A stretch of DNA of 64,000 bases from Corythoichthys intestinalis (lineage: Eukaryota). Positions 39,113 to 40,569 of this stretch are shown piece after piece (within the stretch, counting starts at the first letter, position 1; each line of letters starts with the position of its first letter). The stretch covers positions 22,855,480 through 22,919,479 of the forward strand of contig NC_080408.1 in NCBI RefSeq assembly GCF_030265065.1, read 5' to 3'. The translations under genes and the position numbers were made by a program. The notes beneath the pieces are model-generated. The model was not told the origin of the DNA and searched no databases. It was given only the letters and a program-made list of their open reading frames with translations.

Positions 39113-40030
39113 ACAATAGCAGGGGTCCTTTTTCCTGTGAGGGCTACATAACTTTTCCCTTCTCTGATGAGAGTCCGGGGTCAGTTTGTAACAGAAAAAG
39201 TGTGATGATTGCAGGAGTGCCTAAATGTAAAAAAATATTGTTTTTCAGAAAGCCACAATCAAATAACCCTTTCTGGATTCTTCATGGAACAACAGTAAGT
39301 AAAATAAAAATAATAATATAATATAATAATAATAAATAAAAATAACACTATTAATTAAATAGATAATAACCAAATAACCCTCTCTGAGTTCTTCACAGAA
39401 AAAGGCCAGGAAATAAATACCACTATTGAGAAATTTTTTTTTTTAAATGCTCTCTGGTATTGTTCTTGCCTGCCACGGCCAGACTGTTCTCCCTGTGTTT
39501 TTCAAACACTGAGAGTATAGTCTGGGACCCAGCCCATTAACGGCCTCTCGAGCAAGTACAAAATCAATCGACAAATCAGATTCGTTTATTTGCGTGACGT
39601 GTTCTTAACGAGCAACGTCACTCTTCCGCGTCGGAAGTCGTCTCCACAACAACACAGATGACGAACAGGAGAGCTGAGAATATGTTCCAATCCACGGTAA
39701 AAATCCGTTTTAAATTACGATAAACACATCGACACAAGTCATTGACAACAGTCTGTCTCGCACTAGCCATGTTGAATAAACTCTACTCTCCTTGTATGTT
39801 TACTTCCGCGCGCAAGTCCCTCGTCCCGCCCATCCTTGATTGGTCCACTCTGCTGTCTGTTTGCTGTGGCTTGCTCCGCCCTGGAAATTTTATCCGCTTA
39901 ATGGTGGCCAGACTCAATAGCTGGAACAGCGGTGAGTCTGGAGTACCAGGCTAGTATTGTTCAGGGGGCCGGACCAAACGTGGAGGTGGGCCGTATCCGT
40001 CCTGCGGGCCGTAGTTTGGGGACCACTGCA
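39113..40030. mobile_element. Terminal-inverted-repeat element of the CAGGGGTCC...GGACCACTG family, carrying an ~510-bp unique insert
   Basis: Both terminal blocks match the MITE at 4420-4815 in reverse. The 39450-39960 segment is absent from the short copy. Confidence 0.5.
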
Positions 40031-40440
40031 ATAGAGCATGTGGATTCAATTTAAATGAGAAGGTATTGCGGTTATTACAATTTTTTTAGACATTGCTTTA
40101 TAACATTCCGTTCACGTTCCAAAAGATGAAATAAATACACCAAATACTAAATACACCACGCAAATATTAACCATTTGACTTAATATTTTGTAATATTGTT
40201 TTTATGAAACTGAAGCTATTAATCATGCGGAATGGTTCTCAAATTCCCGAGTTGCTTGAACGCAGCACCACAACAACGATCCCGCTGCCAGGTGAGACAG
40301 ACCACGCCCTCCTCCTCCTCCTCCTTTCCTGTCATCATGACGACGTACACTGTAAAACCGGCTCGGCAGGTATTTTAAGCATTGTTGTTTAAAAAGTCGT
40401 CACACGGAATTGGGTGAAGGTTGTTTTATTTCTCTCGTTT
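39560..40440 (+). promoter_or_regulatory. Putative promoter / 5' region of the repeat-exon gene
   Basis: CpG-rich segment with CRE-like cgtgacgtg / gacgtcac motifs at 39590-39640. A 7-bp stem palindrome cgggaagcgacgaatattcttcccg lies near 40510. It is just upstream of the ATG|gtgagc at 40567. Confidence 0.25.
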
Positions 40441-40566
40441 TTTCAAGTGAACAGGAGTGGGTGGAACTTTTCAGCTCAGAAGCCTTGGAAGCTCCTTGAC
40501 AGAAAGTACCGGGAAGCGACGAATATTCTTCCCGAGTTTCTTTCGGAGACTGAAGGAAGAGTCAAA

Positions 40567-40569
40567 ATG
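40567..40569 (+). CDS. Candidate initiator ATG ending exon 1 of the repeat-exon gene (tcaaaATGgtgagc)
   Basis: Kozak-like ATGg immediately followed by a strong donor gtgagc. All downstream exons are phase 0. The start could instead be the upstream in-frame ATG at 40414. Confidence 0.3.

Follow-up and report, generated by a model that had tools for sequence, protein, structure and literature searches.

A two-layer composite of putative transposons upstream of a conserved apolipoprotein-L-like gene promoter in Corythoichthys intestinalis

Introduction

Is the CpG-rich DNA lying directly in front of a fish gene a promoter delivered by a transposon, a host CpG-island promoter into which a transposon has inserted, or neither of the two? 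The question is raised by positions 39113-40569 of a 64,000-nt stretch of teleost DNA from Corythoichthys intestinalis (NC_080408.1, positions 22,855,480-22,919,479 of the forward strand; hereafter, the window), where an element bounded by terminal inverted repeats (TIRs) and enclosing a CpG-rich segment precedes the start of a gene with repeated, disordered exons, termed gene 2. A sequence-only reading of this stretch had proposed that the promoter of gene 2 may be transposon-derived or, alternatively, that the element had inserted into an existing CpG-island promoter. The interpretation favoured here, to which we assign a probability of roughly three in four, is that two transposons, one nested inside the other, make up a composite within intergenic DNA specific to this lineage; it would be situated upstream of a pre-existing gene 2 promoter, most likely without a present role or with at most a modest upstream input.

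Results

Conservation of the gene 2 start in Stigmatopora

A query assembled from candidate exons of gene 2 retrieved apolipoprotein-L-like (ApoL-like) proteins of pipefishes and other fishes, with the best match being P0001 of Stigmatopora argus (42% identity at 92% query coverage). In the window, gene 2 is preceded by a TEP1-like WD-repeat gene with its end near 36565. This gene order, with a TROVE/NACHT/WD gene upstream of the gene 2 orthologue, was also found in S. argus (locus L001) and in S. nigra (locus L002). The features at the gene start are the following:

40029-40235, no strand: spacer of 207 bp, AT-rich, not conserved in Stigmatopora, starting with the right CAATAG repeat of the outer element
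40236-40569, plus strand: proximal promoter and exon 1 of gene 2 (ApoL-like), 78%/76% identical to S. argus/S. nigra
40647-40709, plus strand: exon 2 of gene 2, encoding DRYSNLEIDLECDDGGGGDVA; at its presumed end, the donor would be GCAAGT

The conserved block extends over 618 bp (40236-40853) and covers the proximal promoter, exon 1 with its ATG, intron 1 and exon 2; its identity is 78% to L001 9679-10276 and 76% to L002 9693-10243. The end of the upstream gene (36263-36906) also aligned, both blocks together showing 78% identity to L001 and 76-79% to L002. Nothing between 36906 and 40236 aligned to either locus, and neither of the two transposons described below had a match in L001 or L002. 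The distance between the two conserved blocks is ~500 bp in Stigmatopora versus 3.3 kb in the window.

A three-way alignment revealed near-invariant blocks (CGCTGCCAGGTGAGACAG.CCACGCCC; CTGTCATCATGACGACG; GTAAAACCGGCTCGGCAGGT.TTTTAA) and a conserved junction between AATG and GTGAGC. The ATG at 40567-40569 closes exon 1; it is followed by the GTGAGC donor and corresponds to the annotated gene start of S. argus in L001. This ATG is located 539 bp past the end of the element, in agreement with the earlier placement of the first exon and ATG within 540 bp. Since residues 2-23 of P0001 were mapped via tblastn to 40647-40718, intron 1 is merely 77 nt long and the conserved stretch beyond it is exon 2. 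The promoter block is present as a single copy in the window.

The block is conserved in species carrying neither transposon, and the core promoter is therefore regarded as ancestral and not transposon-derived. The comparison with the orthologous promoter in species lacking the element, where 40236-40853 is 76-78% identical in two Stigmatopora orthologues without either insertion, thus lends no support to the proposal of a transposon-derived promoter. We conclude that not only the predicted core promoter but also exon 1, with its terminal ATG, and exon 2 of gene 2 are ancestral.

The end of exon 2 seems to be marked by a GC donor (GCG followed by GCAAGT) that is likewise conserved in the two Stigmatopora species. 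Gene 2 contains internal duplications, which explain why it had been called highly repetitive; they were found at 42688-42915 and 44995-45141, with the coding-exon motif ...SSVLGG(M/I)LKK.PKRGHARRPSQ. Furthermore, ~1 kb of intronic DNA is duplicated at 45716-46800 and 47871-49056, with translated open reading frame (ORF) segments being 60-90% identical.

The outer element

The outer element and its shorter relative in the window are composed as follows, with the flanking repeats presumed to be a target-site duplication (TSD) and the family being of the miniature inverted-repeat transposable element (MITE) kind:

39114-39119, no strand: left flanking repeat CAATAG, exact over 6 bp and abutting the element, presumed TSD
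39120-39465, plus strand: left arm of the hAT MITE, AT-rich and CpG-depleted, with a damaged TIR
39963-40028, plus strand: right arm of the hAT MITE, ending in the 16-bp TIR AGTTTGGGGACCACTG (40013-40028)
40029-40034, no strand: right flanking repeat CAATAG, an exact copy of 39114-39119
4416-4813, minus strand: short copy of the same hAT MITE family, ~398 bp, with the intact TIR CAGGGGTCCCCAAACT at 4813-4798

Direct reading placed the element at 39120-40028, starting with CAGGGGTCC and ending with GGACCACTG; the element formerly drawn at 39113-40030 is thus real, with its borders having been off by 7 and 2 bases. Its termini are complementary at 8/9 positions, which is weak evidence when taken alone, and CAGGG at both ends conforms to the hAT terminal motif YARNG. 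In a pairwise alignment with the short copy, 39128-39433 matched 4799-4495 (92% over 307 bp) and 39967-40024 matched 4477-4420 (83%), confirming via both arms the relationship of this longer element to the MITE at ~4420-4815. The left TIR of the long copy reads CAGGGGTC/CTTTTT; compared with CAGGGGTCCCCAAACT, it has suffered a 6-bp deletion.

According to the same alignment, the extra segment of the long copy spans 39434-39966. A private, CpG-rich segment of ~510 bp had been reported from this place; it is indeed present, measuring ~533 bp by alignment, of which 488 bp constitute a separate transposon. The short copy is devoid of this nested element and of a further ~21 bp around the nested element's target site, and the rest of 39434-39966 outside the nested element is MITE sequence that was lost from the short copy.

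The TSD of hAT elements is expected to be 8 bp in length. Loss of 2 bp or an unusual duplication may account for the 6-bp flank of the long copy, whose adjacent 8-mers (TACAATAG and CAATAGAG) do not line up in register. Around the short copy, the flanking sequence is ambiguous as to a TSD.

A search of MITE-arm translations against the protein collection returned a single match, P0027 of Penaeus vannamei. This protein is annotated as GTF2IRD2-like, has Pfam FAM200-ZBED5/GTF2IRD2-like domains on record, and its C-terminus extends into the transposon end. P0027 was unmatched in a profile search with a local Pfam copy, and its assignment as a transposase is based on the source annotation and precomputed hits. 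The corresponding shrimp element (L003 9542-12391) is a transposase-bearing hAT of 2.85 kb with ends homologous to both MITE arms, the left arm being 81.5% identical over 341 bp (L003 12377-12040) and the right arm 93% and 100% (L003 9601-9557 and 9566-9542, about the last 70 bp). It has the same TIR as the window MITE, is flanked by an 8-bp TSD matching at 7/8 positions (TTATACAG / TTATACAA) and carries the nested element's target site in intact form. In contrast to the window copies, the shrimp hAT has a coding interior at a length of 2.85 kb and is without the 18-bp internal duplication of both fish copies, which was observed near the right TIR (39988-40013; GGGCCGTA, 18-nt spacing). Because their ends are homologous to those of a transposase-bearing hAT, the window copies are taken to be internal-deletion derivatives of a shrimp-type element.

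For the Charlie-like hAT-HT2 family of Anolis carolinensis, which was transferred horizontally, the 16-bp TIR CAGGGGTCCCCAAACT is on record (PMC3014272, Table 1). The short copy has this very TIR, and the right end of the long copy (reverse complement CAGTGGTCCCCAAACT) agrees with it at 15/16 positions; this likeness is one of TIRs only. Further common traits are the YARNG terminus, the existence of short, deletion-derived non-autonomous forms and the presence of the family in distant animals. Unlike hAT-HT2, the window copy is flanked by a 6-bp instead of an 8-bp repeat, and it misfits the target consensus NTCTAGAN / NTNTANAN. As judged from its ends and arms, the outer element is a non-autonomous hAT MITE of the Charlie/Buster type. 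The identity between the fish and shrimp sequences (81.5% over 341 bp; 93-100% over ~70 bp) suggests horizontal transfer, in line with what has been reported for the hAT-HT families that have the same TIR; the occurrence in a shrimp implies either horizontal transfer or an unusually conserved family.

The nested 488-bp element

Within the MITE, the following features delimit a second element:

39457-39465, no strand: left TSD copy GTATTGTTC, 9 bp of MITE sequence, found by repeat search
39466-39953, plus strand: nested TIR element of 488 bp, non-autonomous, of unclassified superfamily, equivalent to the CpG-rich private segment
39466-39525, plus strand: left terminus, TTGCCTGCCACGG followed by the hairpin CCAGACT...AGTCTGG; minus-strand pattern match, inverted repeat
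39908-39953, plus strand: right terminus, hairpin CCAGACTCA...TGAGTCTGG (AGTCTGG) followed by AGTACCAGGCTA; plus-strand pattern match
39954-39962, no strand: right TSD copy GTATTGTTC, a perfect match to the left copy

In the shrimp hAT, the target site is single and uninterrupted, i.e., it represents the empty site (AAATGCTTTCTGGTATTGTTCAGGGGGCCGG; CTGGTATTGTTCAGGGGGCC; AAATGCTTTCTGGTATTGTTCAGGGGGCCGGACC). Both ends of the nested element share T(T/A)GCCTG..AC..CCAGACT and a hairpin as TIRs in inverted orientation, stopping exactly at the borders, with the terminal segment before the hairpin comprising 12-13 nt at each end. DNA folding yielded -12.1 kcal/mol for the left end (z = -3.35) and -13.9 kcal/mol for the right end (z = -4.39). 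The segment was absent from both the short copy and the shrimp hAT, so it is not common to all members of the MITE family.

Another origin considered for the CpG-rich stretch is host CpG-island DNA that was present beforehand and became flanked or split by the hAT. Such an origin would fit the CpG-rich domain running on into the promoter, but the stretch is located between the arms of one hAT MITE that are contiguous in relatives, it is delimited by inverted termini and a 9-bp duplication of its own, and the Stigmatopora intergenic region contains nothing corresponding to it, so that the probability of host origin is considered almost negligible. Of the earlier alternative of an insertion into an existing CpG-island promoter, one part holds, namely the insertion of the MITE near an older promoter, at a distance of 207 bp on its upstream side; the part concerning the CpG-rich stretch does not, as this is assigned to a second transposon and not to host DNA. 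In terms of its sequence features, the CpG-rich private segment is a second transposon inserted into the MITE, equipped with its own TSD, TIRs and relatives.

When the insert was compared with all fetched loci by BLAST, no match reached E <= 1e-3. Its stop-free translations had no match in the protein collection, a method of little power for non-coding repeats.

Other element types were also considered. For a short interspersed nuclear element or small-RNA origin, an Rfam search of 38800-40700 gave only a chance-level match to mir-7385 at the left hairpin (18.9 bits versus a gathering score of 69, E = 0.73), and such an origin is rejected. A retrocopy is unlikely, with an A-rich or simple-repeat tail being absent from the insert. 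A Helitron would be suggested by the 3' CTAG after the hairpin, followed by T; this reading is rejected, since there is no 5' junction of A with TC and the perfect 9-bp TSD with its matching empty site fits the borders better.

Relatives and classification of the nested element

A scan of metagenome contigs with the terminus pattern yielded 34 matches, ~26 of which look like chance or bacterial hairpins. The other eight end in CCAGGCTA and are found on low-GC, animal-like contigs with unrelated flanks. Six of these contigs (L022, L023, L028-L031) belong to a single repeat family, with up to 430 bp in common counted from the terminus, and one of the six encodes a G8 domain, which suggests an animal origin of the contigs. 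A full copy is present in L022 (163 to ~921), with a 9-bp duplication matching at 8/9 positions (GTTGAAAGC / GTCGAAAGC). Bearers of the terminus include L037 (211-1309) and L038 (~3027-3070); the accession prefixes of the contigs are MDSQ/MDSP, JACCDR and JAAUXW. In the metagenome elements, the terminus reads T(A/G)GCCTGG and is combined with the CCAGACT-stem hairpin. The stricter pattern ending in CCAGGCTA had zero matches in 596 Gb of prokaryotic genomes, and a scan of viral contigs gave one GC-rich chance match only.

The closest relative found is the L037 element, with homology surfacing only upon targeted local alignment. Over the left subterminal part (~250 nt of the interior), it is collinear with the insert, including the CRE (cAMP response element)-like box AATCAGAT..GTTTATTT..TGACG, at an alignment score of 18 versus 8.5 +/- 1.5 for shuffled sequences (0/3000 shuffles scoring as high). 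On the right side, the block with GC-box and TTGATTGG aligned more weakly (reached by 37/3000 shuffles); read by eye, the arrangement of GC-box, TTGATTGG and AATGGTGG recurs in L037 with a spacing of 55 versus 56 nt. The CpG observed/expected ratio (o/e) of the L037 element is 1.19. Since L037 shares both, the CpG richness and the promoter-like content are a property of the transposon lineage and not of the locus.

TSDs of 9 bp are made by Mutator-like elements (MULEs), including Pack-MULEs, and by Merlin elements; MULE and Merlin elements begin with G-rich termini. Mutator-like elements and Pack-MULEs are further marked by TSDs of 9-11 bp, long TIRs, a MURA-type transposase in their autonomous partners and captured fragments of host genes. 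The nested element resembles these groups in having a 9-bp TSD in both complete copies (window and L022) and in being a TIR-bounded, non-autonomous element with a non-transposase interior. It differs in that its TIRs are short (~45-60 nt), imperfect and hairpin-bearing and start with T(A/T/G)GCCTG instead of a G-rich terminus. No transposase could be linked to the nested-element group, and no superfamily could be assigned; literature searches for the nested element's terminus and for fish elements with a 9-bp TSD gave nothing relevant.

On the Pack-MULE model, the insert would be a transduplicate, its interior having originated as a copy of a housekeeping host gene's promoter and first exon. 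The 9-bp length of the TSD is typical of Mutator-like elements, the interior resembles a TATA-less housekeeping promoter with first-exon-like ATG...GT strings, and a second copy was found neither in the window nor by an ORF search of protein databases. The value of the latter result is low, since a protein-based search is weak for non-coding DNA and the MITE control gave one match only. Against host capture, ~250 nt of the left interior, including the CRE-like box, are collinear with the L037 element, and the order of GC-box, TTGATTGG and AATGGTGG recurs there. Unlike the interior of a Pack-MULE, that of the nested element thus appears to be family sequence rather than captured host DNA, which makes host capture very improbable.

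CpG content and motifs

The nested element contains 27 CpGs in 39466-39953 (o/e 0.97), and within it lies the following feature:

39540-39860, plus strand: CpG-rich core with 23 CpGs, o/e 1.41, and CRE-like, ETS-like, GC-box, CCAAT and YY1-like motifs

For comparison, the o/e is 0.66 in the whole window and 0.12 in the MITE left arm. The CRE-like strings were located at 39594 (GTGACGTG) and 39615 (ACGTCAC), so that the CpG-rich stretch with CRE-like motifs noticed in the sequence-only reading is borne out, and the ETS-like, CRE-like, GC-box, CCAAT and YY1-like cores cluster in 39594-39881. The core ranks in the top 1% of 320-bp windows, with about six other patches of the window being equally rich, and the G+C content of the CpG-rich stretch is only 46-48% (o/e 0.97-1.41 over 320-488 bp). 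A CpG-island promoter is characterised by an o/e greater than 0.6 together with elevated G+C over at least 200 bp that overlap a transcription start. In the 207-bp spacer, the o/e is 1.15, derived from 5 CpGs. CpG loss is evident in the left arm, which has 1 CpG, against the 4 that the short copy and the 3 that the shrimp homologue have; the insert, right arm, spacer and promoter are without such loss. We infer that the CpGs of the insert were retained because the insert is young, because an unmethylated promoter domain reaches into it, or both.

These data lend themselves to a co-option model, in which the CpG-rich, motif-dense body of the nested element serves as an upstream alternative promoter or enhancer of the ApoL-like gene, so that part of its regulation, though not the core promoter, would be transposon-derived. 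The o/e of the insert, staying high through the spacer and conserved promoter, is in line with it, as are the grouping of the motif cores, two ATG...GT(A/G)AG first-exon-like strings pointing towards gene 2 (read directly) and the distance of just 283 bp from the right end of the insert to the conserved block. However, the promoter block is conserved in species without the insert, which is thus unnecessary for a functional promoter; motifs and CpG richness are common to a relative on an unrelated contig and hence give no evidence of local selection; and other patches of the window are equally CpG-rich. In addition, the insert ATG at 39901 with its GTGAGT donor would leave phase 1 versus a phase-0 exon 2. 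The arrangement resembles transposon-derived promoters and CpG islands of vertebrates in that a CpG-rich, motif-dense transposon body lies within 300-600 bp of the gene start in the same orientation, but it departs from them in the defining point, which is a transcription start inside the transposon or a core promoter missing wherever the transposon is missing: the gene 2 core promoter is conserved where the transposon is absent. Overall, we regard co-option as unlikely.

A more far-reaching version would see in the nested element an undescribed group of animal DNA transposons (9-bp TSD, T(A/T/G)GCCTGG with CCAGACT-stem hairpin, CpG-rich interior with CRE, CCAAT and GC-box) whose ready-made CpG-island-like module has been taken over here by an ApoL-like immune gene as its upstream promoter or enhancer. 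We judge this combination to be very unlikely.

Other features of the window

At 50884-51246 on the minus strand, an intron of gene 2 harbours an ORF of 120 aa in which Pfam recognised a BED zinc finger (E = 1.3e-9); it lies inside a patch (50481-51780) that is among the most CpG-rich of the window. The ORF is probably the N-terminus of another hAT-type transposase.

Tc1-like transposase ORFs are also present. One of 303 aa is located at 24061-24972 on the minus strand, and decayed Tc1-like fragments at 10910-11788, 43373-44455 and 55853-56501 are spread through both genes. The segments 18254-19095 and 19165-19958, offset by 911 bp and 100% identical in translation, stem either from tandem duplication in the very recent past or from an artefact of the assembly; a 67-bp tandem repeat (18023-18233) adjoins them. 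Two segments of ~190 bp (23613-23805 and 35586-35778), 12 kb apart and with 98% identical translations, represent another young repeat family.

Discussion

The anatomy of the locus and the order of the two insertions were observed, as were the absence of both elements from Stigmatopora and the conservation of the promoter. In the proposed course of events, the old gene 2 promoter would already have been in place when a non-autonomous Charlie/Buster-type hAT of ~412 bp inserted between the TEP1-like and ApoL-like genes, 207 bp upstream of that promoter. Subsequently, the 488-bp hairpin-ended TIR element, belonging to a different, unclassified group, would have inserted into the MITE with duplication of 9 bp. 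Both the high CpG content and the motifs (CRE, ETS, GC-box and CCAAT) would then be cargo of the nested element, and the composite most likely has no present role, or at most provides a modest upstream input to a working promoter.

Several points weigh against this interpretation. The outgroup consists of one genus only, Stigmatopora (S. argus and S. nigra), and its intergenic DNA could not be aligned to the immediate flanks of the MITE, for which no clean empty site was seen. The CAATAG repeat is 2 bp short of the 8 bp typical of hAT elements. For the nested element, the terminus pattern was built from the two ends of the window copy itself, a generic local alignment of these ends was marginal (reached by 78/2000 shuffles), and a second copy was not found within the window. 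Finally, the o/e stays at or above ~0.7 without a break from 39450 to 40850, which also fits an insert residing within one unmethylated promoter domain, and the composite may have an added regulatory role.

Taken as a whole, this is an ordinary nested-transposon arrangement adjoining a conserved promoter. For the annotation of the locus, it follows that the gene 2 promoter is to be treated as ancestral and the upstream CpG-rich patch as probable transposon cargo, not as a host CpG island. A young transposon can deliver CpG-rich, motif-dense DNA as a whole beside a gene start, which may mislead promoter prediction from sequence alone. Of interest to transposon specialists are the hAT family, being 81-100% alike in a pipefish-like fish and a shrimp, and, of unclassified superfamily, the hairpin-ended type of element with a 9-bp duplication.

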